A stretch of 43,718 nt of DNA, taken from contig CAZQVN010000008.1 of NCBI GenBank assembly GCA_964596775.1, positions 1-43,718 on the forward strand, read 5' to 3'. Source of the DNA: an uncultured bacterium (lineage in GTDB: Bacteria > Eisenbacteria > RBG-16-71-46 > JABDJR01 > JAWXBZ01). Within the stretch, counting starts at the first letter, position 1, and the number at the start of each line of letters is the position of its first letter. The notes below the pieces were generated by a model. The model did no database searches and had not been told where the DNA came from. It saw nothing but the letters and a program-made list of their open reading frames with translations. This document shows, one piece after another, positions 335 through 36,979 of this stretch. The translations under genes were made by a program, and so were the position numbers.

Positions 335-1972
335 TTGCCAGAATCGTCATCGGACGATTCCCCTGACGATTTTTTTGACACTGCTGAAGCAGAGCTTCAA
401 GTTACCGAGCGTGAGGTTCTGCTCAGAACCAGGTCGGAACTTGAAGAAAAGCTCAGGGCCCAGACCGAATCACGTTCTCGACTTGAATTGCTTCTGGATG
501 TATCACGATCGATCAACTCGGTTCTCAGCCTCTCCGCGGTTCTGGGCAGGGTCATGGACTCTGTCCTGGACATTTCCGGGGCACAGCGCGGCTTTCTGGT
601 CCTTCTGGACGAGAACGGACAACATCACCTCGAGATATCGAAGAATCTGGAAGATCAGGATTCCACGGCCGAGGAAACATTTCGGATCAGCCAGACGATC
701 CTCAAGCAGGCGATTGAAAGCGGTCGCACGATCTGGGTTTCGGATGCGCTCAGCAATCCGTCCTTCACGAACTTCCAGAGCGTCCGGGACCTCTCCCTGC
801 GGACCGTGATCTGCCTGCCCCTCAAGATCGACGAGAAGATCCTCGGAGCCATATACCTCGACAGCCGGGCTGTTACCACGCTTGTTACGGGCGATGGTCT
901 GGGAATCCTGGAGGCGTTCGCCTCGCAGGCGGCGGTGGCCATCTCCAACGCACGAGCTCACGACAAGCTGAAGTCCTTCCAGACCCGGCTTGAGCTTGAG
1001 AACCGAAGCCTGAAGCGTGTCCTTCGATCGGAATTCAACTTCGATTCGCTCCTCGGCAAGAGTCCGGCGATGCAAAAGGTCTTCGATGTCCTGGAAAAAG
1101 TCGTCGACAATCCGGTGACCGTGCTGATTCAGGGCGAGACCGGAACCGGCAAGGAACTGGTTGCCCGCGCGATTCACAATTCCGGCCCGCGCAGGACCCA
1201 GAGTTTCATCGCCATCAACTGTGGAGCACTTCCGGAGTCGCTTCTTGAAAGCGAATTGTTCGGATACCGTCGTGGAGCCTTTACCGGAGCCAACGATGAC
1301 CGTGTCGGCCTGTTCGAGGCCGCCGGGGGCGGAACCCTGTTCCTCGACGAAATCGGGGAGCTGTCGCAGTCGTTGCAGGTTAAATTGCTTCGGGTGCTGC
1401 AGGAGGGCGAAGTCCGGCGGCTCGGATCCACGGAATCGAGAAAAATTGATGTGCGACTTCTTGCGGCGACAAACAGGAACCTCGCCGATGAAGTAGAGGC
1501 GGGTCGCTTCCGGCAGGACCTTTTCTATCGGCTGAACGTCGTCTCCATCACCATGCCACCACTGAGAGACCGCCAGGACGATCTGTTGCTGCTCGCCGAG
1601 CACTTTCTCAAGAAGTGCGGCGAGCGAATGAAGAGATCCGGGTTCTTCCTGACACCAGAGGCAAGGAGTTGTCTGCTGGCCCATTCATGGCCCGGGAATG
1701 TCCGGGAACTGGAGAACTCGATCGAACGTGCCTGCGCGCTGACGAGCGGAGACTCCATAACTCCGGAACATCTTGTTCCCTCGGCTCCTGCCGTGACTCC
1801 CGGGGAGGATGCGGCGAAGCTGAAGCAGGTCCTTCTCCGTGCGGAGAAGATCACGATCGAGGCAGCCCTCAGGCGAACCGCCTGGAATATCTCGAAGGCG
1901 GCTGCGGCGCTTGGAGTCAGTCGCCAGCATCTCCACAATCGGATCAAGAAACTGGACATCGAGACCCGCTGA
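335..1972 (+). CDS. Sigma54-dependent transcriptional activator (bEBP) with N-terminal GAF sensor and C-terminal Fis-type HTH
   Basis: Walker A GETGTGKE, the GAFTGA sigma54-contact motif (ESELFGYRRGAFTGA), a GAF-like N-terminal domain, and a C-terminal HTH (NISKAAAALGVSRQHLHNRIKKL). TTG start with AGGAG immediately upstream. Confidence 0.9.
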   Translation: MPESSSDDSPDDFFDTAEAELQVTEREVLLRTRSELEEKLRAQTESRSRLELLLDVSRSINSVLSLSAVLGRVMDSVLDISGAQRGFLVLLDENGQHHLEISKNLEDQDSTAEETFRISQTILKQAIESGRTIWVSDALSNPSFTNFQSVRDLSLRTVICLPLKIDEKILGAIYLDSRAVTTLVTGDGLGILEAFASQAAVAISNARAHDKLKSFQTRLELENRSLKRVLRSEFNFDSLLGKSPAMQKVFDVLEKVVDNPVTVLIQGETGTGKELVARAIHNSGPRRTQSFIAINCGALPESLLESELFGYRRGAFTGANDDRVGLFEAAGGGTLFLDEIGELSQSLQVKLLRVLQEGEVRRLGSTESRKIDVRLLAATNRNLADEVEAGRFRQDLFYRLNVVSITMPPLRDRQDDLLLLAEHFLKKCGERMKRSGFFLTPEARSCLLAHSWPGNVRELENSIERACALTSGDSITPEHLVPSAPAVTPGEDAAKLKQVLLRAEKITIEAALRRTAWNISKAAAALGVSRQHLHNRIKKLDIETR

Positions 1973-2029: not shown

Positions 2030-2065
2030 AAAAAAAGCGCCCCGGGAAATCCCGGGGCGCTTTCG
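2030..2065. terminator. Strong GC hairpin terminator (10-bp stem GCGCCCCGGG / CCCGGGGCGC, loop AAAT) between convergent genes
   Basis: The stem occupies 2037-2046 and 2051-2060. A 7-nt A-run (2030-2036) gives a U-tract on the minus-strand transcript (gene 2084-2755). TTTCG follows on the plus strand, so that side is weaker. Confidence 0.7.
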
Positions 2066-2083: not shown

Positions 2084-2755
2084 TTAGTTGTTGTAGAGCG
2101 ACTTGATGGCGCCCCACGTGGAGTTCTGGACCGGTGTCGGAGCACCGCACGGGTTGTAACCACCCTGGCCCGCAAAACCCGCAACACCCAAGTGCGACGG
2201 GAATGCCAGCGTCAGATCATCTTCACGAGCGGAGCAGTCGGCCACCTTGGCGAATCCCGAGTTCGGACGGGGCGTAACGCTCATCGTCGACGGGCCGTAG
2301 GCGCCCATGTAGAAGTAACCGGCCACGGCGATGACGGTGTAGCGCGTGCCTTCGGTGTTCGTGTTCTGGCAGGCATTCCAGGTGACGAGGTTTCCGCCAC
2401 CGCTGTTCGGCCAGCCGGTCGAGGGGAATTCGAGGGTGGCGCAGAGGTTCCAGTTATAGACCTGGATCGTCGGATTCTGGTACTGGATTCCGCACTCAAC
2501 GCCCTTGATACCGGTGGAGTCGGAGGCGTTACAAACCAGGAGATAGGTGTAGTAGAACCTTCCGGGACTGGACGAGGGCTCCTGATAGTTGATCGTGTTG
2601 GCCTTCAGGCCGGGCAGGCTGCACGCATTCTTTGATGTGACGCTGCCGACGTGCAGGGCAATACCGGCCTGGGAGTTGTCGAACGCGGACGCGTTGCCGG
2701 CCAGCGCGACGGCCAGAACCGACCCCATGACTACAGTCGAAAGAAAACGCTTCAT
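2084..2755 (-). CDS. Secreted Cys-rich protein of unknown family, paralog A (223 aa, Sec signal peptide)
   Basis: Signal peptide MKRFLSTVVMGSVLAVALAGNASA and SD AAGGAGG 9 nt before the ATG. About 45% identical to the 3104-3760 product: six conserved Cys and shared motifs HVGxVTxKNAC, WNLCAxLEF, GYFYxG, VADCxA and YNPC, plus a C-terminal KSLYNN. A dedicated promoter and terminator flank the gene. Confidence 0.75.
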   Translation of the reverse strand: MKRFLSTVVMGSVLAVALAGNASAFDNSQAGIALHVGSVTSKNACSLPGLKANTINYQEPSSSPGRFYYTYLLVCNASDSTGIKGVECGIQYQNPTIQVYNWNLCATLEFPSTGWPNSGGGNLVTWNACQNTNTEGTRYTVIAVAGYFYMGAYGPSTMSVTPRPNSGFAKVADCSAREDDLTLAFPSHLGVAGFAGQGGYNPCGAPTPVQNSTWGAIKSLYNN

Positions 2756-2930
2756 TACTTGTTACCTCCTTAGCGAACGACAGGCAGTGTTGTGGTGTTG
2801 GCAGGTGACGGTTGTCAACTCGGGGAAGGTAACAACCCGGTCACGGTAGTAACCGATCGTGGTTGTCGTATCACCTCCTAGTGTAGAGTCACGTTGCGGC
2901 TTTTGGGTGAGTCGCTAAAATACACTGGAA

Positions 2931-2959
2931 ATTATAAAAGCGGCCTATCCTCAAGTCAA
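2931..2959 (-). promoter_or_regulatory. Near-consensus sigma70 promoter for gene 2084-2755 (-35 TTGACT, 17-nt spacer, -10 TATAAT)
   Basis: On the minus strand, TTGACT is the reverse complement of 2954-2959 and TATAAT the reverse complement of 2931-2936. The implied 5' leader is about 170 nt. Confidence 0.55.
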
Positions 2960-3047
2960 TGATTAACTTCCCCGGAGTCAATGGATACAATTTATTACAA
3001 GTCATGCACTTATCCATGCTGTTCGGTGCCTGGACGGACGGTCCGGA

Positions 3048-3078
3048 ACAAAAAAAGAGCCCTCTTTCGAGGGCTCTC
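3048..3078 (-). terminator. Intrinsic terminator for gene 3104-3760 (stem GAGCCCTC / GAGGGCTC followed by a U-run on the minus strand)
   Basis: An 8-bp stem (3057-3064 and 3069-3076) lies next to A(9) at 3048-3056, which is a U-tract on the minus-strand RNA. Confidence 0.65.
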
Positions 3079-3103
3079 TGACTTCTTGCCTGTAGGGTAA
3101 AAC

Positions 3104-3760
3104 CTAGTTGAACAACGACTTAACGCCACTCCACGTCGTTGTTTCCACCGGGACGATATTCTGGCAGGGATTGTATCCCGAACCGGTCCCGAAATCCGCA
3201 TAACCCAGAGGCGAGGGTGCCTGCGCCGTCAGGTTTTCCTCCGCAGCGTTGCAGTCCGCAACTTTCGACGATCCATCCACGGGGCGAGGAATCAGCGAAA
3301 GGCGGTCCGGAGTATAGACACCGAGGTAGAAGTATCCGGCTACGGTCGTCTTCGGTCCGAGCTGGCAGTTCCCCGCCTTGTCCCATGTGATGAGCGTTCC
3401 GGTGTTGGACGAAAAGGGCCATCCGGCCATGGCAAATTCGAGATTGGCGCACAGATTCCATCCGAAGATGTCGATGCCGGCATTGCTGGCATCGTTGTAT
3501 GTGATGCCGGCCTGCATACCCGCCACACCGACGGAATCGGACTGGTTGGCTACGCAGAGATAGACGTTGTAGGCGCTGCCGACCGAGCCGGTCACTACTG
3601 CATTGCGGCAGTCGACCGGAACCGAGGTACAGGCATTCTTGGTGGTCACGGCGCCGACGTGAAGCAGAATCTTGGCGCTGGCGTTTTCCCCGGCGTGGGC
3701 ACCGGATGCCAGGCCGAGGCACAGGCCCGCGGCAATGAGGGAACGATAGACGAGTTTCAT
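3104..3760 (-). CDS. Secreted Cys-rich protein of unknown family, paralog B (218 aa)
   Basis: The signal peptide MKLVYRSLIAAGLCLGLASGAHA begins at the internal ATG (3760), which has SD AAGGAG 8 nt upstream. The ORF-track start at 3790 is an upstream GTG with no SD. Paralogous to 2084-2755. Confidence 0.75.
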   Translation of the reverse strand: MKLVYRSLIAAGLCLGLASGAHAGENASAKILLHVGAVTTKNACTSVPVDCRNAVVTGSVGSAYNVYLCVANQSDSVGVAGMQAGITYNDASNAGIDIFGWNLCANLEFAMAGWPFSSNTGTLITWDKAGNCQLGPKTTVAGYFYLGVYTPDRLSLIPRPVDGSSKVADCNAAEENLTAQAPSPLGYADFGTGSGYNPCQNIVPVETTTWSGVKSLFN

Positions 3761-3976
3761 GGACGAGCTCCTTGGGGCTGGGGGAACCACGCCGGTCGAT
3801 CGACCGGCCGATAATCCGCTGCGGCCACCACCCGGTCACCGCGATATCCTCTTATCGGCCGTACTGCCCCCCGGCTTTAAGACAGATGAGCCACCTTTCC
3901 GACTACCCTGCGGTCGTTTATACTTCCGGCTTCTTCATGTCGTTCTTGAACTTCGCCGGTTTCAGGGGAACCCAAA

Positions 3977-5407
3977 ATGGCCAAAAATATCACTCCCCGG
4001 AGTGAGGATTACTCACGCTGGTACACGGATATCATTGCCCAGGCACAGCTTGCGGATTACGCCCCCGTCAAGGGCTGCATGGTCATCCGCCCCCACGGAT
4101 TCGCCCTGTGGGAGCAGATGCAGGCCGTGCTGGACCGGATGTTCAAGGAAACCGGGCATGAGAACGCCTACTTTCCGATGCTGATTCCGGAGTCCTTTCT
4201 CAAGAAGGAAGCGGAACACGTGGAGGGGTTCTCCCCGGAACTGGCCGTTGTGACCCACGCCGGCGGCAAGCCACTGGAAGAACCCCTTGTCATCCGGCCG
4301 ACGTCGGAAACGATCATCTGGAGCACCTATCGGAACTGGATCCAGTCCTATCGGGACCTCCCGCTGCTGATCAACCAGTGGGCGAACGTGGTTCGCTGGG
4401 AACTGCGGACCCGCCTGTTTCTTCGCACGACCGAGTTTCTCTGGCAGGAAGGACACACAGCTCATGCCACGAAAGAGGAGGCGCACGAGGAAACACTGCG
4501 CATGTTGAACGTCTATGCCCGCTTTGCCGAGGAATACATGGCGATGCCGGTCCTCAGGGGACCGAAGTCGCCCGCGGAAAAGTTTGCCGGCGCGGAGACA
4601 ACGTACTCGATCGAAGCCATGATGCAGGACCGCAAGGCGCTTCAGGCCGGCACCTCACATGATCTTGGCCAGAACTTCGCGAAGGCGTTCGACGTGACGT
4701 TCCAGAACGCGGAAGGAACCCGTGACTTCGTGTGGGCAACCAGCTGGGGCGTATCGACACGGCTCGTCGGCGCCTTGATCATGTGCCACAGCGACGACGA
4801 CGGACTCGTTCTCCCGCCGAAACTGGCCCCGATTCAGTGCGTGATCGTTCCGATCTGGATGAAGGAGCCGGACCGGGAGCGGATTTCGGAGGAGGGCGCG
4901 CGGATCGAAGCGGAACTCTCCGGGACCTTCCGAACGAAGCTGGATGCGCGCGCACATCACAAGCCGGGCTGGAAGTTCGCGGAGTGGGAGCTTCGCGGCG
5001 TCCCCGTGCGCGTCGAACTCGGGCCCAGGGATCTCGAGAACGGCCAGGTGACGGTCGTCCGCCGCGATACGAAGGAAAAGGAATCCATTCCGCGCGCAGC
5101 CGTGGCCGGCAGGGTCGCGGAGCTGATGGACGAGATCCAGAAGTCGCTGTTTTCCCGGGCCCTGGAATTCCGCGAGGCGAACAGTCACCGCCTGGACAGT
5201 TACGACGAGTTCAGGGTCCGGATCGAGGAGCCGGGCGGGTTCTTCTGGATGCCGTGGTGCGGATCAGGCGACTGCGAGGCGCGTGTCAAGAACGAGACGA
5301 AGGCCACGATCCGCTGCATGCCCGACGACACGCCGGAGGAATCCGGCAAGTGTGTCGTTTGCGGCGGCGCGTCGCGCCGTCGTGTCGTCTGGGCCAAGGC
5401 CTATTAG
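3977..5407 (+). CDS. proS: Prolyl-tRNA synthetase, eukaryote/archaeal-like class II type with C-terminal zinc-binding domain
   Basis: 476 aa with an N-terminus [47 protein letters not shown] typical of this ProRS type. A C-terminal CxxC pair (CVVCGG) is present, and SD AGGGGA lies 9 nt upstream. Confidence 0.9.
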
Positions 5408-5528: not shown

Positions 5529-7646
5529 TCAGGGAACGATCTGCTGGCGCCGAACCATCTCCATGATGCGCTGTGCTTCTGCTGAGGCGTTCGTGCGCAG
5601 CAGCATGGCCTCCGCTTCCTTGAAGCGGCCCATCCGACCGAGCAGCCGACCGTAGAAGAAGTACCACTCCGCCTGGTGCGGCTCGAGTTCGAGCGCCTTC
5701 TTGTAGGCGCGTTCCGCGTCCTCCTGGCGTCGGGCCTGTTCGAGGGCCCACCCCAGAAGAAGGTAGCTGCGACCGTAGCCGGGGTCGGTCTTGATGGCCT
5801 GGGCGAACTTCTGGATGGATTCGGCTACCTTGAGCTCACGAAGGAGAAGAATGCCCTCCTGAATGTAGCTTTCGGCAAGCCGCTTCGTGGCTTCGTCTCC
5901 GGAGAGCCGGGTCAATGTATATTGCTTCGCGTCGTCGACCTGGAGAAGAAAAGGAGTGCGCTCCGGCATTCGATCCATGAGTTCGCGATCCTTCAGGGCA
6001 CCCTGGTCGGTGGCATACACGACTCTCATTTCGTGATCCGGAACATTGTTCGGCGCTGAGTGCACCCAGGAATCGAACGGGGGTTTCTGGAGGGTGCCGA
6101 CAAACACGAGCAGTTTTCTGTCCGCCTCCTTTTCGACGAGCCGGTACGGAGCGGCAATTCTGTCCGTGAGCTGGCGCAGTTCCCCGATCTGGATCCGCCC
6201 GAAAAGTCCCCAGCCGAGAAAGCAGAAGCAAATGACGAGAGCCGGAGCCAGCGCCGAGACTCCGGGCCTCTGGCCCGATGCGACCCTTCGGTCGAGTGCC
6301 GCGACTCCCGCGACGGTGAGGATCGTGAGAATCGGGAGCAGTTCATAGTACTTGACGGGCCCCGTGTCGCTCACGCCGATGGAAAAGTAGAACACACTGC
6401 CGGCCGCAACGGCGATCAGCGTGGCCCACAGGGGAGTGAGACGCGAATCGCGCGCCCAGAGCAGCGCGGCAATCACGAAAATCCATCCAAGCGGCCAACC
6501 CCATGTCCAGAAGTTGAGGCGAACCGCGATCATTCCGATGTTGATCAGGCCGTCCAGCGGCGTATGGCTGATTTTTCCGGGAAGGATTTCGCCGAAACCG
6601 AGCACGCGCCCACTCTCCGGCTGGACTTCACTGTATCCGGTTTGAAAGGGGTTGCCGGTCAGCACCGCGTTGTATCCGAGGAATGCGCCGAGAAAGAACG
6701 AGCCGGCTCCCATGGCGGCGATCCATGGACGCAGGGGCGATCGGCTGCGGACGGCTTGCCATGCCCAGAGGATCATGATCGGCGCGCCGATCAGCACTGC
6801 CGTGTAGGGGCGCGTGAGAAAAGCGAATCCGAGCCCCGCTCCGGCTATCAAGGCATCCCCGGCAGACGCGCTGTTCCGGGCTTTCAGCGCGAACAGGCCG
6901 AACACCTGAAGGGCGGCCAGGCAGGTCATGTGCGACAGCAGTGTGCCGCCGGTCAGGAGAAAAAACGGGGAGGCGAGAAGCAGCAAGGTTGCACAGCGGG
7001 CCGATCGCCGGGAAAAGAAGTGAAGGGCGATTTGATAGAAGAGGAACAGATTCAGGGCGGCGAGCAGGGCGGGAACGGCGCGCGGAAAACCCGCGGCGAT
7101 CCCGGGCACGAGAGCCAGCGGGTGCCCGGGAGGATACTTTCCGTACCACTTGTCCCTGTTGATGATGAACGTGTTGTTGAAGAACTCCGGCACCCCCGGA
7201 TAGGGAAGCTCGTAGAGCCGGCCGCGCGAGAGTATTTCGGCCTGGAACAAATAGACGCGTTCGTCGTCCGTGACCGGCTGGTCACGCAGAACCCAGAGGC
7301 CTGCGGCGAGCACAAGAACTGCTCCGGTCACCGATACCATGGTGAGAAAGGCGCGGTCGGAGGGCGCTTCGATCGACGCGCCAAGCGACTCGAACGGCCG
7401 GCGCCCCAGCAGAAAGGCGATCCCGGATCCGAGGAGAAGCCCCGCCGGAAGAATCAGCGCCAGATACTTGACGTAGAAGGAGGCTTCGCCGGCCGGCAGT
7501 CTCTTGAGGAAGGGAAACCCGTACTCGCGGAGATTGGGAAAACCACCCTGGATTTCGAGCCAGACAAAGAAAGCCACGGCGCCAAGACCCAGAAGAATGA
7601 GCCCCAGGCCCGCGCCGGGATTGCGGTCTTTATGTCCTTTAGTCAT
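5529..7646 (-). CDS. Polytopic GT-C-fold membrane glycosyltransferase-like protein (PMT/GT39- or TMEM260/DUF2723-like) with C-terminal TPR repeats
   Basis: It has roughly 11 predicted TM helices and a loop motif YGKYPPGHPLAL resembling the PMT HPPLGK loop. The C-terminal ~150 aa are TPR-like. Its start overlaps the upstream paralog stop by 8 nt. Confidence 0.7.
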   Translation of the reverse strand: MTKGHKDRNPGAGLGLILLGLGAVAFFVWLEIQGGFPNLREYGFPFLKRLPAGEASFYVKYLALILPAGLLLGSGIAFLLGRRPFESLGASIEAPSDRAFLTMVSVTGAVLVLAAGLWVLRDQPVTDDERVYLFQAEILSRGRLYELPYPGVPEFFNNTFIINRDKWYGKYPPGHPLALVPGIAAGFPRAVPALLAALNLFLFYQIALHFFSRRSARCATLLLLASPFFLLTGGTLLSHMTCLAALQVFGLFALKARNSASAGDALIAGAGLGFAFLTRPYTAVLIGAPIMILWAWQAVRSRSPLRPWIAAMGAGSFFLGAFLGYNAVLTGNPFQTGYSEVQPESGRVLGFGEILPGKISHTPLDGLINIGMIAVRLNFWTWGWPLGWIFVIAALLWARDSRLTPLWATLIAVAAGSVFYFSIGVSDTGPVKYYELLPILTILTVAGVAALDRRVASGQRPGVSALAPALVICFCFLGWGLFGRIQIGELRQLTDRIAAPYRLVEKEADRKLLVFVGTLQKPPFDSWVHSAPNNVPDHEMRVVYATDQGALKDRELMDRMPERTPFLLQVDDAKQYTLTRLSGDEATKRLAESYIQEGILLLRELKVAESIQKFAQAIKTDPGYGRSYLLLGWALEQARRQEDAERAYKKALELEPHQAEWYFFYGRLLGRMGRFKEAEAMLLRTNASAEAQRIMEMVRRQQIVP

Positions 7647-9723
7647 GCGTAACTTGCCTTCCTTCCGGGGACTTCACTCTTGCGATCGATGTCAGGATCC
7701 GGGCCCTGGCCTCAGGGGTGTCCGGAGCCAGCTCAAGCGCACGATTATACGCGTTCAGGGCCGCAGGATAGTCACCGAGTTTCTCGGCGACAACCCCGGC
7801 ATTGAAGTGATGGGAAAAATAGTCGGGAGCGTGGCGGATCGCTTCCGCAAAGTGTCGCGCCGAGTCGTTGAGCCTTCCTTGTGAACCATCGATGCTTCCC
7901 AGGCCCGCCCACGCGGCGGCCAGGTCCGGTTTCAGGCGGACCGCGCCTTCAAACGCAGTCCGGGCGGCGAGCGTGTCCCCCATGGCCAGATGGTTCAAGC
8001 CCTTGCGGTAGTCGATGGCCCCGGCCCATCCGGTCCGGGCGCCGGGAACGTTCTCCTCGAGACGTGCGATCGTGGCCAGAGCGTCCCCGGGGAGCCCGAG
8101 ATTGCGCTGCAGTTCTTCGAGATTGAACCATGCTTCCGGAAGACGGGGATCCGCGGTGATGGCCCGGCGAAAGTGGTCCTCCGCCTCGCGGGTGTTCTTC
8201 TGGAGGAGCGCCACGCGACCGAGGTTGTTGAGCGCGTCGGCGGAGGCCGGGGAAATGGCCACGGCCCTTTCGAACTCCTGGCGGGCCGCACCCAGTTCAC
8301 TGCGCTGATAGTAGAGCGTGCCGGCAAGGTTGTGCATGTGGGCCAGCGCGGGAGACGTGTCCATGAGCGGAAAGGCTCCCAGGAACAGGAACGCGATCAT
8401 GACCAGTGAACCGGCCAGCATTCGTCCTGGTTCCCGCCTCCGCGCCGTTTCGATCAGGACCGCCAGCCCGTTGCCCGCGAGCGGCAACATCACCGCGATG
8501 ACGGGAAGGCGGTAGCGGTCCGTGACAAAGAACAGGATGACCGAGGCGGCGTAGGCGGCTCCGACAACAAGAAGCAGTCGCCCCTCGGAGCTTTTTCGCA
8601 GGGTCAGGGCACCCCAGACCGCAAGCGGCATGAGCAGGAAGAATCCGGGGAGGAGGCGCAGGATGGGGACGCGGGCCTGAAAGTAGCGGATATCGTAGTG
8701 GTTCGGGAGTTCCGTGCCGCTCAGGAAGAGGAGCATCTTGCGGGCCAGGAGCCCGAACTGCTGGAGCGGATCCGCGCCCCACGCCGCAAACCCGCGGCGG
8801 AACCAGTAGCCGGATGCCGCCGACGGACCCGCGGGCGTTCCGAGCGCCCGGGACGCCGCTTCCATGGAACTCATCGACAGCCCGTCGGAGCGGTTCAGCA
8901 GGGGCTCGGCCGCCGGAAGGGAAAACGAGCCGTCCGCTTCCGGGTTGTTTCCGATGAAGAAATTGATGCCGCCGTTCGAGGACACGAGGATCCACTCTCC
9001 CGTCTGGGCGTGATTGCGCACGGTGACCGGCGCGAGAACGACGACCAGTCCCACGGCGAACAGCCCGAGTGCCGATCGGGCCGACCTGTCCCCCGGACGA
9101 AGGGCCGCAGCGGCGAGGACGGCAGCCACGACGGCGGGGACAAGGAGCACGTTCGGCTGCGCCAGCCCGGACAGCGCGAACGCGGCTCCGGCGAGCAGGG
9201 CGTGAACGCGGTCGCCCCCCGACTTCAGGAGAACGATTTCCCGCGTGGCGAGATGGAGAAAGAGCAGTGCCCAGGTGATGGAAAGGAGTTCGCCTTCGAA
9301 GAAGATCGCCGGAGCGTAAAGAGCGGCAAACAGTCCTGCCCAGAATCCGGCACGGCCCCCGGCGATCCGTGCGGTCGTGTCCCGCACGATGAGAACGCCG
9401 AGAATGCCGGCCCCGAACTGCAGCAGCCGGGGAAGCAGGAGCCCGGCTCCGTCACCGGCCGTGAGCGCGAGATACCAGGGGTAGAAGGGGGCCTGGAAGT
9501 AGGGCTCGCCAAGCGGCGCCCACAAGCCCTGGGCCCGGACGGCTCCGGCGAGAGTGAGGTACTGGGCCGCGTCACCGGTGGCCTCGTTGAACAGCAGGAG
9601 GTTCCGGGCCTGGAAAAAGTACAGGAGCCTGGCGACGGCGGCGGTCAGAACCAGGACCAGGACGCCGGCCGGACCTTCGAGTCGGCCCGGTCGCCCGGCC
9701 GTTTCAGTGTCGGTTGAGTTCAA
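7639..9723 (-). CDS. Polytopic GT-C-fold membrane protein with C-terminal TPR repeats (paralog of 5529-7646 and 22427-24580)
   Basis: TTG start. It shares the motifs YFQAPFYPWYLAL and NGGINFFIGNN with the 22427-24580 product, and it carries five or more C-terminal TPRs. It is the first gene of a two-gene operon with 5529-7646. Confidence 0.7.
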   Translation of the reverse strand: MNSTDTETAGRPGRLEGPAGVLVLVLTAAVARLLYFFQARNLLLFNEATGDAAQYLTLAGAVRAQGLWAPLGEPYFQAPFYPWYLALTAGDGAGLLLPRLLQFGAGILGVLIVRDTTARIAGGRAGFWAGLFAALYAPAIFFEGELLSITWALLFLHLATREIVLLKSGGDRVHALLAGAAFALSGLAQPNVLLVPAVVAAVLAAAALRPGDRSARSALGLFAVGLVVVLAPVTVRNHAQTGEWILVSSNGGINFFIGNNPEADGSFSLPAAEPLLNRSDGLSMSSMEAASRALGTPAGPSAASGYWFRRGFAAWGADPLQQFGLLARKMLLFLSGTELPNHYDIRYFQARVPILRLLPGFFLLMPLAVWGALTLRKSSEGRLLLVVGAAYAASVILFFVTDRYRLPVIAVMLPLAGNGLAVLIETARRREPGRMLAGSLVMIAFLFLGAFPLMDTSPALAHMHNLAGTLYYQRSELGAARQEFERAVAISPASADALNNLGRVALLQKNTREAEDHFRRAITADPRLPEAWFNLEELQRNLGLPGDALATIARLEENVPGARTGWAGAIDYRKGLNHLAMGDTLAARTAFEGAVRLKPDLAAAWAGLGSIDGSQGRLNDSARHFAEAIRHAPDYFSHHFNAGVVAEKLGDYPAALNAYNRALELAPDTPEARARILTSIARVKSPEGRQVTHD

Positions 9724-33379: not shown

Positions 33380-36300
33380 TCAGCCGGAGATCCGTTCCCG
33401 AGTCCGCAGGGCCTGGTCCAGGTACGGGCGGGCGCCCGCTTCCTCGAGGAGTCGAATGCCCCGGTCCAGGTCCGCGGAGGCCTCCTCCGAACGCCCCGAC
33501 GCCGCGCTGACGAGGGCCCGCGCATGCAGAGAGCGTCCGAGGACGACGCGGGAATCGATCCCTTCGCTGATGCGGACCGCGGCGTCCAGGGGTTCCCGGG
33601 CCTGGTCCGGCCGGTCCTGCGCCATCCAGACTTCGCCGAGGGCCAGCCGGGCCCGTGATTCCATGACATGCGATCCGCTGGATGCCGCCATCTCCAGGTA
33701 ATACTCGGCGGCCTCGCGGGCTTCCTCGTGGAGACCGAGCGCGGCGAGGGTGCGGCTTCTGCCCGGTTCGATCAGGCTGCGGGAGATCATGTGATCGCTG
33801 CCGGAGAGGATTTTCACGTACGTCTCATGAATGGCCTGCGCCTGCACCCACTCCTCGCGCAGAACGTGGAGCAGGGCGACGGCGGACAGGGCGCAGACAC
33901 GCAGATGTTTCTGGTCCAGTTCGCCCAGGCTCCGGACGGCCTCGCGCCCGAGCGATTCGGCTATCTCGAGATGCCCCGACTCGGCCTCGACGGTGGCCAG
34001 GAACACCGACGAGAGGAGGGCGAGCCGGTTTTCCCCGATGTTGCGGCAGATCTCGATCGCCTGGCTGTACCCCTCCCGCGCTTCGGCGAGGCGTCCGCCG
34101 TTGTACTCCGCCAGCCCTTCGCCGAACAGCGACCAGGCGATGCGGTCCCGGGCGCCCATCTCGTTCCCCAGCGCCCGGTTTTTCCGGCCGTGCTCGAGCG
34201 CCTGCTCGCGGTGCCCGATCATCGCCAGGCATTCGTTCAGGAATTCGTGTCCGAGGGCGACCGCCGGCGGGTACTTCCTGTCCATCCCGAGCTTGAGAGT
34301 GCGCTCGGCCCAGTCCCTGCCCTGGGCCAGCAGGCCCTTGTGCTGGTGCGCCCCCGCCATGTAGCCGTAGATGCGCGTCAGTTCCTCCGGGTCGTCGAAC
34401 GGCTCGGCCATGGCCAGCGCCCGCTCGAGGAACTCGATCGACCGGCCGTGCTGGCCGAGGTAATGGTGATAGCGCCCCATCATGGTGTTGGCGGTGACGA
34501 GGTACCGGCCCTGCGTGGCCGGATCCAGTTCCGCCATGGCTTCCTCGAGATAGCGATGACCACTGAGGTGCCCGGTGGCGGCATAAGCCTCCCCGATCTT
34601 GGCCTTGAGCATGGCGCGCCGGGCCGGGTCCTCCGTCAGCGCCAGGGCGTTCTCCAGGGCTTCGGCGGCCTTGAGATGAAAACCGCGGGCCAGCTGGATT
34701 TCGCCGATACCTTCACCGATGTGGGCCTTGAGGTCGTCGCGGTCCAGCGATTCCGCGCATTCCAGGGCCTGCTCGTAGTAGCGGAACGATTCGTCCAGGG
34801 CGAAGAGCCGGGCGGCCTGCACCGCGGCCCGCTCGGCGTAGGCGTAGCCCTGTTCCAGGTTTCCGGCGTGGATGAAGTGATGCGCAAGCTCCTGCACCCG
34901 GTCGTCGATCGTCGACGCGTAGAGCCTGAGCAGCCCCTCGCCGATCCGGAGATGGAGGCGCCGACGGCGGATCGGATTCTGCTCCTCGTAGAGCACTTCG
35001 CGGATCTTGTCGTGGGTGAACGAGAACGCCTCGCCGCGGTCCGGGCGCACGAGCTGGAGGCTGGCCGCCTCGTCGAGCGCGTCGAGGATCGCGTCCTCGG
35101 TCATCGTGAGCACCGCGGCCAGCTCGTTGAACTCGAACGTCTTGCCGAGCGCCGCGGCCGAGTGGAGCATCTCCATGCAGGGGGCGCCGACATTGTTCAG
35201 GCGCCGGCCGATCGCCTCCTTGACGCTCTGGGGAATGGCGAGGTCGCGGACCTCGCCGCGCTGCCACTCGCGCCCGTCGTGATGGATCTGCCCCTGCTCG
35301 ATGAGCGACTTGACGACCTCCTCGATGAAGAACGGGTTCCCCTCGGTTTCCCGGAACAGCGCGTCGGCGAACTCCGGCGCCACCGACTTCTGCCCGAACA
35401 GGGTGGCGAGCATCGCCCCGGTTTCCGCCGCGGTCAGGCGGTCGAGCGCGAACCGGGTGACGAGGTGCTCGCGGTTCCACTGGACCAGCGACGAAGCGAG
35501 CGGATGCGCGCGGTCCAGTTCGATCTCGCGGTACGCTCCGAGAAAGAAGACCCGGTCGTTCTTCGTCTGGCGGAGCAGGTAGTGCAGCAGCGACAGGGTG
35601 CCCTGGTCGGCCCAGTGCAGGTCGTCGAGGAAGACGAGCACGCCGCTCGTCGCGGCGCGCTGGCGGAGGAACCGCGCCACATGATCGAACAGGCGGAGCT
35701 TCTCCTCGTTCGGCGGCAGCGGCGGATTCGGCGGCAGGGGACCGATGAGATTGTCGATTTCCGGTGCCAGCCGGGTGAGTTCCGCGCCGAGGGGACCGAT
35801 CTCGGTGCGCAGCGTATCCGCGGAGTGGCCGCGGACCCAGCCGCGGAGTGCTTCCACGAACGGGAGATAGGGAGTGGTGGCCTCGAACTCGTAGCATCCT
35901 CCCCGCAGGATCAGCGCGCCGGACAGCTGTGCGTAGACCATGATGTCGTTGGCGAGCCGCGTCTTCCCCACGCCCGGTTCGCCGGAGATCAGCGCCATGC
36001 CCCCCTGCCCCTTGCGCGCCTGCGACCAGAGGTCGCGCAGGGCCTGCAGCTCCCCGCGCCGGCCGACGAGCCGTCCCCGCGCCAGTTTTCCGAGCAGCGA
36101 CACCGTGGAGGCCTGGGACTCGCCGGGCAGGCCGGCTTCCTCGGCCGGTCCGATCACCACCTTTTCCAGCGCCTCGGCGGCCTCGCGGGCGTCGGCAAAG
36201 CGCTCCTCGCGGCGCTTCGCGAGAAGCCGGAGGAGGATCGCCTCCATGGCGTCCGGAACATCGGGCCGGAAGTTCTTCGGCGGGATCACCGGGGCGTTCA

Positions 36301-36979
36301 GGTGTTCGGAGATCACCATGAGCGGATCGTCGCTCGTGAACGGGGGGCGGCCGGTGATCAACTCGTAGAGCAGGACGCCGAGGGAGTAGAGATCGGCGCG
36401 GCCGTCCACCTCCTCGCCGAGCGCCTGCTCGGGGGCGAGATAGGCCGGGGTGCCGATGAGCGCGCCGTCCTGGGTGATGCAGGAACCGGCGCCGATCCGG
36501 GCCACGCCGAGGTCGGTGATCTTGGCGGTGACGGACTCCGCGTCGTCCAGGAGCAGCACGTTGCCCGGCTTGATGTCGCGGTGCACGATGCCCTGGTCGT
36601 GCACGTGGGCCAGGGCGTCGCAGAGCTGGATGGCGAGGTCGCGGATCGCTTCGAGCGTGAGCCCGGTCGCGGCGCGGAGATCGCGGCCGTCGACGAGTTC
36701 CATCACGATGAACGCGCGGCCGTCGGTTTCGCCGGTGTCGTAGACGGCCACGACATGGGGGTGGTTGATCCGCGCGGCCGCCCGGGCCTCCTCGAGCAGA
36801 CGGGCGCGCCCGTCCGCGTCCAGCGAGCTGCCGGCCAGGATCTTCACGGCGACGTCGCGCGCGAGACGCTCGTCATGCGCGCGGTACACGTGACCCATGC
36901 CGCCCCGGCCGATTTCCGAGAGAAGCCGGTAGCGCCCGGCAAGCACGGTGTCCCGGGGGATGGGGCCGGTGTCCTTCAT
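33380..36979 (-). CDS. PknK-like Ser/Thr protein kinase fused to AAA+ (STAND/MalT-like) ATPase and TPR-like C-terminal region
   Basis: Hanks kinase motifs (GRGGMGHVY, VAVK, HRDIKPGNVLL, DLGVAR) are followed by Walker A GEPGVGKTRL and about 600 aa of helical repeats. SD GGGAGG is upstream, and the start overlaps the upstream gene stop (ATGA). Confidence 0.85.
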   Translation of the reverse strand: MKDTGPIPRDTVLAGRYRLLSEIGRGGMGHVYRAHDERLARDVAVKILAGSSLDADGRARLLEEARAAARINHPHVVAVYDTGETDGRAFIVMELVDGRDLRAATGLTLEAIRDLAIQLCDALAHVHDQGIVHRDIKPGNVLLLDDAESVTAKITDLGVARIGAGSCITQDGALIGTPAYLAPEQALGEEVDGRADLYSLGVLLYELITGRPPFTSDDPLMVISEHLNAPVIPPKNFRPDVPDAMEAILLRLLAKRREERFADAREAAEALEKVVIGPAEEAGLPGESQASTVSLLGKLARGRLVGRRGELQALRDLWSQARKGQGGMALISGEPGVGKTRLANDIMVYAQLSGALILRGGCYEFEATTPYLPFVEALRGWVRGHSADTLRTEIGPLGAELTRLAPEIDNLIGPLPPNPPLPPNEEKLRLFDHVARFLRQRAATSGVLVFLDDLHWADQGTLSLLHYLLRQTKNDRVFFLGAYREIELDRAHPLASSLVQWNREHLVTRFALDRLTAAETGAMLATLFGQKSVAPEFADALFRETEGNPFFIEEVVKSLIEQGQIHHDGREWQRGEVRDLAIPQSVKEAIGRRLNNVGAPCMEMLHSAAALGKTFEFNELAAVLTMTEDAILDALDEAASLQLVRPDRGEAFSFTHDKIREVLYEEQNPIRRRRLHLRIGEGLLRLYASTIDDRVQELAHHFIHAGNLEQGYAYAERAAVQAARLFALDESFRYYEQALECAESLDRDDLKAHIGEGIGEIQLARGFHLKAAEALENALALTEDPARRAMLKAKIGEAYAATGHLSGHRYLEEAMAELDPATQGRYLVTANTMMGRYHHYLGQHGRSIEFLERALAMAEPFDDPEELTRIYGYMAGAHQHKGLLAQGRDWAERTLKLGMDRKYPPAVALGHEFLNECLAMIGHREQALEHGRKNRALGNEMGARDRIAWSLFGEGLAEYNGGRLAEAREGYSQAIEICRNIGENRLALLSSVFLATVEAESGHLEIAESLGREAVRSLGELDQKHLRVCALSAVALLHVLREEWVQAQAIHETYVKILSGSDHMISRSLIEPGRSRTLAALGLHEEAREAAEYYLEMAASSGSHVMESRARLALGEVWMAQDRPDQAREPLDAAVRISEGIDSRVVLGRSLHARALVSAASGRSEEASADLDRGIRLLEEAGARPYLDQALRTRERISG

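Follow-up and report, generated by a model that had tools for sequence, protein, structure and literature searches.

A portable C-terminal tag and a predicted cohesin-like fold in two paralogous proteins of Eisenbacteria

The C-terminal signals LPXTG and PEP-CTERM and the C-terminal domain of the type IX secretion system (T9SS) have each led to dedicated envelope machinery, and they are used to predict surface proteomes. Here we describe a C-terminal tag on two proteins, A and B, which are encoded by a tandem gene pair of Candidatus Eisenbacteria, to our knowledge an uncultured phylum known only from metagenome-assembled genomes (MAGs). The genes lie in a stretch of 43,718 nucleotides (assembly GCA_964596775.1, contig CAZQVN010000008.1, positions 1 to 43,718), hereafter the window. 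The architecture of the tag is unlike that of any described anchor or sorting module, though the tag behaves like one. The tag resembles the PEP-CTERM/exosortase, MYXO-CTERM, LPXTG/sortase and GlyGly-CTERM systems and the T9SS C-terminal domain in its strict confinement to C-termini, its portability and its occurrence on many unrelated, putatively exported proteins. Like known anchors, it is mutually exclusive with other anchors and is found behind a bona fide choice-of-anchor V domain. In contrast to LPXTG, PEP-CTERM, MYXO-CTERM and GlyGly-CTERM, it lacks the tripartite layout and ends 9-10 residues after an invariant tryptophan, with no hydrophobic stretch. It also differs from known anchors in being only about 20 residues long and in mostly ending one residue past an aromatic residue, and no sortase-like partner was found among the neighbours of tag genes. 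In our judgement, there is about an even chance that this undescribed tag directs A and B to the cell envelope, where they would serve as binding or structural modules.

Three other kinds of system invite comparison. The PTS1 signal (-SKL), the KDEL signal and the ligands of PDZ domains are short C-terminal labels that are recognised at a free carboxyl terminus, and the YxF tails of outer-membrane proteins are PDZ ligands that activate DegS. The tag shares with these labels a fixed distance to the C-terminus and a small number of invariant positions; these labels belong to other organisms and other compartments, and the comparison is no more than an analogy. Braun's lipoprotein (Lpp) is one of the abundant envelope proteins that have stable mRNAs, and its C-terminal ...YRK is linked to peptidoglycan. 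Like Lpp, A and B are small, predicted exported proteins encoded in cassettes with strong promoter, Shine-Dalgarno (SD) and terminator signals, and the tag has a basic-aromatic end (...LY-R) and an invariant lysine. Unlike Lpp, A and B are not lipoproteins, they are predicted to form a beta-sandwich and not a coiled coil, and the lysine lies five residues from the end instead of being terminal. The cohesin modules include the cellulosomal types I, II and III and the non-cellulosomal modules of Clostridium perfringens glycoside hydrolases (PDB 2vo8, 2w1n, 1ohz). Like them, the domain of the A/B family is predicted to be extracellular and occurs singly, in tandem and in multidomain surface proteins. 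It differs from cohesins in its sequence (about 10% identity), its length (about 170 against about 140 residues), its three conserved, predicted disulfides and its host, which is a candidate phylum with T9SS-type cargo and not a Gram-positive cellulosome producer.

Gene A (positions 2084..2755, minus strand) encodes a predicted exported protein of 223 residues with a signal peptide, a cohesin-like domain and the C-terminal tag. Gene B (3104..3760, minus strand), read from the ATG that follows AAGGAG, encodes a paralogue of 218 residues with a signal peptide (residues 1-23), the domain and the tag. The two products are 44% identical over 225 columns (BLASTP, E = 4e-57), and no third copy is found within the window. 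A first-pass annotation, made from the letters of the window, had described a tandem pair of secreted, cysteine-rich paralogues of about 220 residues and about 45% identity, each with separate expression signals. Our analysis agrees with this description, and all of the shared motifs named there are present in the alignment of A with B (as LHVGxVTxKNAC, WNLCAxLEF, AGYFYxGxY, KVADCxAxExxLT, GYNPC and TW[GS]x[IV]KSL[YF]N). The exact products of A and B are on public record, both from one NCBI contig of 97,974 bp. Loci from other genomes and metagenome contigs are cited below by our own labels (L001 and so on).

The C-terminal tag within and beyond the protein family

Protein A ends in C-GAP-TPV-QNS-TWGAIKSLY-NN (residues 203-223; 2087..2149, minus strand) and protein B in C-QNI-VPV-ETT-TWSGVKSLF-N (residues 199-218; 3107..3166, minus strand), and both fit the tag consensus. 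The conserved tail W(S/G)x(V/I)KSL(F/Y)N, reported in the first-pass annotation as a feature of the two paralogues, is indeed present in both. It is not a family motif, however; together with the residues after GYNPC it makes up a portable tag, a module separate from the domain. Among 228 proteins of the A/B family, 139 carry W[GS]x[IVL]Kxx[YF] within the last 15 residues and 10 carry it internally. In 186 family tails that were picked by the domain and not by the tag, W and K are invariant (100%), and I/V/L (99%), G/S (97%) and T (92%) follow closely. This conservation lies above that of almost any position of the fold, and a sequence-specific reading of the tag appears likely. Proteins with two family domains bear the tag on the C-terminal copy only and none on the N-terminal copy, and six family proteins have the family domain separated from the tag by an Ig-like domain of ~85 residues. 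No tag is present in those family members that end in a T9SS C-terminal domain, and the tagless members mostly end in this way.

Metagenome contigs were scanned with the DNA pattern ACNTGGRGYNNNRTCAAGNNNCTSTWC, which returned at least 120 stretches, and the counts given for them describe a sample. Of the DNA matches listed, 121 of 126 lie 0-7 codons before a stop. At the protein level, the motif is C-terminal in 121 cases and internal in 4 within the likely coding open reading frames (ORFs) of the listed loci; 15 terminal cases fall outside the seed pattern and count as independent finds. Exactly one residue, mostly R, follows the Y/F in 80% of the tags listed, and the terminal residue is R in 69% of them. 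The extended consensus reads [C at -9 to -11 in about half]-x-[T/V]-P-V-[E]-x-x-T-W-G-x-[I/V]-K-x-L-[Y/F]-R. After removal of their last 30 residues, 129 carriers fall into at least 59 BLAST clusters, which include FG-GAP, cupredoxin-like, NHL and CxxCH proteins, and the majority have no Pfam domain. A signal-peptide-like N-terminus, as judged by a crude heuristic, occurs in 109 of 123 carriers versus 113 of 386 other ORFs, and two or more carriers are present in 26 of the 120 loci listed. A hidden Markov model (HMM) of the core alone recovers a single true family member among the carriers listed, at L067, and four others match half of the profile. The locus L067 (1118-2585 of metagenome contig Ga0164313_10061267) again holds a tandem pair with the cohesin-like core domain.

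The tail of A and B, about 20 residues long, is a general, portable and strictly C-terminal tag. We also considered a repeat at the DNA level that encodes the tail by coincidence and rejected it because the x positions and the synonymous sites vary. No model in Pfam or NCBIfam matches the tag, ten C-terminal fragments compared with NCBIfam at E <= 10 were also without a match, and no paper was found in a literature search with the tag motif strings. A tagless protein family of ~250-310 residues is encoded beside tag genes in six loci (L018, L097, L098, L104, L118 and L130). Its longest member (L098) has a signal-peptide-like N-terminus, and several members end in ...C-x-x-x-C-[PL].

One cluster of carriers belongs to the choice-of-anchor V family of NCBIfam (102.7 bits against a cut-off of 42; profile positions 10-149 of 150), where 'choice-of-anchor' is understood in the general sense of the NCBIfam descriptions. 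In this cluster, the choice-of-anchor V domain is followed by 22 residues ending in TTWGKIKMLYR. The closest 27 homologues (43-99% identical), one of which is named Candidatus Eisenbacteria, retain the tag, with TTWGKIKMLYR almost invariant among them. More distant homologues end in Por_Secre_tail/FlgD_ig, in a transmembrane helix followed by RRR, or in a dockerin (PF00404). We read the tag as a probable localisation module because homologues carry known anchors at this place and because the tag and the T9SS C-terminal domain exclude each other in the cohesin-like family. This anchor replacement and this exclusivity are the strongest evidence for such a role. The choice-of-anchor V proteins come from L030, L032, L064 and L123 and from our protein entries P0249-P0275; they contain CxxCH, and one member is annotated by JGI as cytochrome c553.

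The same observations bear on the proposal that A and B are ordinary lineage-specific exported proteins, whose tail would be a structural cap or a linker remnant with no addressing role, spread by domain shuffling. Such a proposal could accommodate the facts that no machinery was identified among the neighbours of tag genes, that the tail has low confidence in structural models and that the carriers are mostly uncharacterised proteins. It is difficult to reconcile with at least 59 unrelated clusters that have only the last ~20 residues in common, with the fixed distance to the stop codon and with an invariance of W and K that exceeds the conservation in the folded domain. The mutual exclusion of the tag and the T9SS C-terminal domain within the family and the known anchors that stand in for the tag among choice-of-anchor V proteins also speak against it, and we consider it very unlikely.

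The tail might also act as a direct tether. As an amphipathic in-plane helix (a W/I/L/Y face flanked by K and R), comparable to the C-terminal helix of PBP5, or through a covalent linkage of its invariant lysine, comparable to the C-terminal ...YRK of Braun's lipoprotein, it would tie proteins of the periplasm to a membrane leaflet or to peptidoglycan. In that case, A and B would be structural proteins abundant in the periplasm. The invariant K, the terminal R in 69% of the tags listed and a helix predicted at residues 214-221 are in keeping with this idea, as are the export signals of the carriers, which have a Sec signal only and no known outer-membrane export module, the conserved chromosomal position beside proS, and the strong promoter, leader and terminator anatomy, which may be lpp-like. 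Nevertheless, a helix of 8-9 residues is short for a stable in-plane anchor, and the strong T-W-G/S specificity and the constant spacing from the C-terminus point to a receptor more than to lipid binding. The same slot in homologues holds secretion or surface-anchor modules. A direct tether seems quite unlikely to us.

A family of predicted cohesin-like domains

Neither A nor B has a match in Pfam or NCBIfam at E <= 1. A word-index search placed them in a family of 83 clusters of 'hypothetical proteins' of 190-290 residues, and a family profile built from 46 of the 83 clusters retrieved 1,687 representatives at E <= 1e-3 and 574 at E <= 1e-30. Genome matches and named family members are from Candidatus Eisenbacteria MAGs. 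The earlier statement that A and B could not be assigned to any known family stands as far as curated models are concerned; it has to be amended in that the family is large and its fold recognisable. A and B belong to a large, uncurated, Eisenbacteria-centred family with a predicted cohesin-like fold. Family members with the tag at L008 (CAZFBK010000008.1) and L009 (CAYYYA010000031.1) stand in two genome records titled 'uncultured Gammaproteobacteria bacterium'. All named family matches besides these two are Eisenbacteria, and either the label of L008 and L009 is wrong or the range of the family is wider.

The family domain, about 170 residues in length, is found in three arrangements. It stands alone; it occurs as two copies in a protein, 0-450 residues apart; or it directly follows the signal peptide in large proteins that also have PKD, ASH/Ig, fn3, reprolysin or NHL domains. 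The multidomain members end in FlgD_ig/Por_Secre_tail and are T9SS cargo. What comes after the domain is the tag, a T9SS C-terminal domain or another region, which is a choice-of-anchor-type behaviour, and none of the existing choice_anch models of NCBIfam matches it. From its position after the signal peptide in multidomain proteins, the domain is best described as a putative surface module. A and B themselves were considered as T9SS cargo and rejected, as they have no domain of the Por_Secre_tail/FlgD_ig type and the short tag forms their C-terminus. Tandem pairs recur (in the window, L001, L005, L006 and L067), as do fused two-domain forms. It seems that members of the family repeatedly occur as two copies, either paired or fused.

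In A, the domain comprises about residues 30-200 (2156..2668, minus strand). The structure prediction suggested by the first-pass annotation was run with AlphaFold2 (AF2) on an alignment of 46 sequences, and it gave a confident all-beta model for residues 30-200 with a mean pLDDT of 87.9 and a pTM of 0.80. The model is a nine-stranded beta-sandwich (jelly-roll) that can be superposed on solved cohesins. According to this model, the domain has a cohesin-like fold; it is not classed as a cohesin. A binding function would follow from the protein-binding type of the fold. No paper was found in the literature on Eisenbacteria together with cohesin. Among the window proteins scanned there is no dockerin, and dockerin occurs only in distant homologues of another tag-bearing family. 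The family adds a large branch, braced by predicted disulfides, to a fold best known from cellulosomes.

Both proteins begin with a sequence that reads as a Sec signal peptide with n/h/c layout and an AxA cleavage site, in line with the earlier reading. That of A, MKRFLSTVVMGSVLAVALAGNASA|FD, occupies residues 1-24 (2684..2755, minus strand) with predicted cleavage at ASA|FD, and its N-terminal layout is kept across the family alignment. That of B is MKLVYRSLIAAGLCLGLASGAHA|GE. The first-pass annotation had proposed a search for a lipoprotein signal, and none is present in either protein. The possibility of a lipoprotein was rejected, as the lipobox [LVI][ASTVI][GAS]C is missing in A (...ALAGNASA|FD) and B (...LGLASGAHA|GE); the AGLC of B does not fit a lipobox and is not conserved in the family alignment. 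Six cysteines lie at common positions in A and B, as had been noted, and each protein has one further, seventh cysteine. Among 290 domain copies, 95-99% have cysteine in each of the columns that correspond to A residues 45, 105, 129, 174 and 203, and the cysteines in the columns of residues 54 and 75 exclude each other (phi -0.73). This pattern fits the three disulfides proposed earlier, with an alternative partner for C45.

The fold raises the question of whether the domain could itself be the receptor of the TWGxIKxLY tag. A and B and the two-domain or T9SS-anchored members would then scaffold tagged proteins and each other into envelope assemblies, as a minimal analogue of the cohesin-dockerin system. 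The cohesin-like fold, the recurrent tandem pairs and fused two-domain forms, and the true dockerin (PF00404) that takes the place of the tag in homologues of a tag-bearing protein would all suit such a role. Many cargo families face one receptor family, as in cellulosomes, and members with an N-terminal domain and a T9SS C-terminal domain could anchor at the surface. Against this, AF2 leaves the tail at low confidence in a natural two-domain protein (pTM 0.57, tail pLDDT about 65) and docks it on neither domain, nor does it do so in the single-domain model. A family gene lies nearby in only 1 of the 120 tag-bearing loci listed, and there is no sequence similarity to cohesins by Pfam or by a profile search of the PDB. 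We regard this possibility as unlikely.

We favour the reading that A and B are tag-addressed envelope modules, and its putative steps are as follows. A and B would be transcribed independently and exported by the Sec pathway, and signal peptidase I would cut both. Each mature protein would fold as one cohesin-like beta-sandwich with three disulfides, from which a short proline-rich linker would bear the tag [C]-x-x-[T/V]-P-V-x-x-x-T-W-[G/S]-x-[I/V]-K-x-L-[Y/F]-x-COOH. A factor would read the tag near the free C-terminus, and the tag would set the place of the protein in or on the cell envelope, much as a T9SS C-terminal domain, a PEP-CTERM-like anchor or a dockerin does in homologous proteins. 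A and B would act there as tag-addressed binding or structural modules, and the conserved leader of A may stabilise its mRNA. The tag itself probably serves the cell envelope as a previously undescribed label, either an address or an anchor. Somewhat more tentatively, we propose that TWGxIKxLY(R)-COOH, together with its TPV(E) linker, acts in Eisenbacteria, and perhaps in allied lineages, as a localisation signal that has not been described. It would stand beside the T9SS C-terminal domain and the exosortase-type signals as a third type of route or anchor, with a dedicated receptor or enzyme acting at the free C-terminus and with A and B as conserved core cargo; in the boldest version of this proposal, the cohesin-like domain itself would be the receptor.

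Several points weigh against the reading of A and B as tag-addressed modules. The likeness to cohesins is at the level of the fold only, with a sequence identity of about 10%. Neither A nor B matches Pfam Cohesin (PF00963) at E <= 1, and the family profile run against all PDB sequences finds no cohesin at E <= 10 and a single weak, unrelated match. It is because of these three results that we speak of a cohesin-like fold and not of a cohesin. The tail is modelled with low confidence as a short helix (residues 214-221) in the single-domain AF2 model. In a natural two-domain member both domains fold well, and the tail is again a low-confidence helix (pLDDT about 60-66) with a pTM of 0.57 and an undefined domain arrangement. 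The tag has neither a transmembrane helix nor a folded domain, in which it is unlike every established bacterial C-terminal sorting signal that we know of. The neighbours of tag genes (at least 120 loci) include no recurring enzyme, only T9SS-cargo C-terminal domains, Ser/Thr kinases and proteins of no known kind, and just two carriers come with an organism name. The expression level, the disulfides and the signal-peptide cleavage of A and B are predictions. If the tag is an address label, it defines a hidden class of envelope proteins, its phylogenetic profiling offers a handle on the machinery that reads it, and it could improve the annotation of thousands of 'hypothetical proteins'.

Expression signals and the leader of gene A

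The separate SD sites and intrinsic terminators assigned to the two genes by the first-pass annotation were found again. The SD site of A, AAGGAGGT (2764..2771, minus strand), is invariant across four genomes, and that of B is AAGGAG (3768..3773, minus strand). Gene A is followed by a predicted intrinsic terminator (2030..2060, minus strand) with a 10-bp GC stem, a loop of 4 and seven U, which folds at -38.6 kcal/mol including the flanks and which also separates A from the convergent activator gene described below. The predicted terminator of B (3047..3079, minus strand) is likewise a GC-rich hairpin with seven U; it was matched by a scanner with 11 pairs and a T-run and folds at -24.2 kcal/mol. 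The near-consensus sigma70 promoter and the 170-nt leader reported for A also agree with our results. The promoter TTGACT-17-TATAAT (2931..2959, minus strand) has 11 of 12 matches to the consensus, its -35 region CATTGAC and its -10 region are kept in L005, L131 and L133, and the leader before the ATG is about 169 nt long. From these sigma70-type signals, the expression of A and B is probably high.

The 5' leader of A (2772..2924, minus strand) contains near-invariant blocks in the window, L005, L131 and L133. About 110 nt of it are nearly invariant in these four genomes, whereas the A proteins there are just 54-62% identical. The first block holds a perfect, 5'-proximal SD-like sequence, GGAGGTGAT (2870-2878), with no start codon behind it. 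The second is an 8-bp hairpin, GGTTGTTA...TGACAACC (2805-2847), whose loop CCTTCCCCGAGT contains CCUUCCCC, and the third is the true SD site of A. The matching leader lies at 7450-7650 in L005 and upstream of the A genes in L131 and L133. By analogy with STAB-SD elements, the leader may be an mRNA-stabilising or translational control element. Rfam gives no match anywhere in the window, the leader included, and the fold of the leader shows no excess stability over shuffled sequences (z-score -0.67). The leader hardly varies among the four genomes.

The GC content of genes A and B is about 0.60, compared with 0.657 for the whole window, and their GC3 values of 0.79 (A) and 0.72 (B) are at the low end among the window genes. 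These low values may reflect expression-linked codon choice or the amino-acid composition. The drop in local GC that had been described for the intergenic regions applies to the spacer between A and B (0.486) and not to the spacer between B and proS (0.602).

Neighbouring genes and the sigma54 activator

The prolyl-tRNA synthetase gene proS (3977..5407, plus strand) is divergent from B. ProRS proteins 68-78% identical to it adjoin family genes in L001, L005 and L006, Pfam ProRS domains are found beside family genes in L001, L131 and L132, and proS together with one or two adjacent family genes occurs also in L001, L006 and L132. In the window and in L005 the order is two GT-C/PMT_2 genes with tetratricopeptide repeats (TPR), then proS, B and A, and L131 has the same order with a single GT-C/TPR gene. 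The window and L005 have orthologous A and B genes (62% identity for A, 65% for B); the tandem pair of L006 consists of genes whose products are 80% identical to each other.

On the other side of the pair, a gene for an activator with the Pfam domains GAF, Sigma54_activat and HTH_8 (335..1972, plus strand) is convergent with A, just as the first-pass annotation had stated. That annotation had also proposed to look for co-occurrence of the family with sigma54-GAF regulators, and this was found in part. The activator is adjacent and convergent in the closest subclade only (the window, L005, L131 and L133), and in L001 and L132 a Mur-ligase gene takes its place. Adjacency to proS is a more deeply conserved feature of the family locus than adjacency to the activator.

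The activator adjoins the genes in four related loci, which is what might be expected if A and B were its targets. No -24/-12 element (TGGCAC-N5-TTGCW) is present, however, within 3 mismatches on the minus strand in 2756-3103 or 3761-3976, the regions upstream of A and B, as the annotation had already found, and the 121 matches in the whole window do not depart from the 119.9 expected by chance. The Mur-ligase neighbour in L001 and L132 and the convergent arrangement of the genes are further points against such a control. A regulatory link is unsupported because there is no -24/-12 element, because a strong terminator separates the convergent genes and because A has a conserved sigma70-type promoter. 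The caution of the annotation on this link was justified, and we consider it extremely improbable that A and B are targets of the activator.

The rest of the window is of a housekeeping character, with trp/aro genes, BipA, an acyl-CoA dehydrogenase, XdhC and a Ser/Thr kinase. Two membrane proteins (5529-7646 and 7639-9723, minus strand) consist of a GT-C glycosyltransferase region and a C-terminal TPR region, and the first has a PMT_2 match. Synteny of such genes with proS and the family is found in the window, L005, L001, L006 and L132, and L131 has a single gene of this type. The GT-C/TPR architecture recalls the eukaryotic TMTC O-mannosyltransferases, which modify beta-sandwich cadherin domains. 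Large Ser/Thr kinase genes recur in the window (33380-36979, minus strand), L131 (12087-15329), L133 (4952-8464) and L037 (2504-5479). The copies of the window and L037 have a TPR region, and the window copy also has AAA_16. In L131 and L133 the kinase gene lies two genes beyond the GAF-sigma54 activator, and other Ser/Thr kinases are found in several tag-bearing loci; such kinases may simply be abundant in these genomes.

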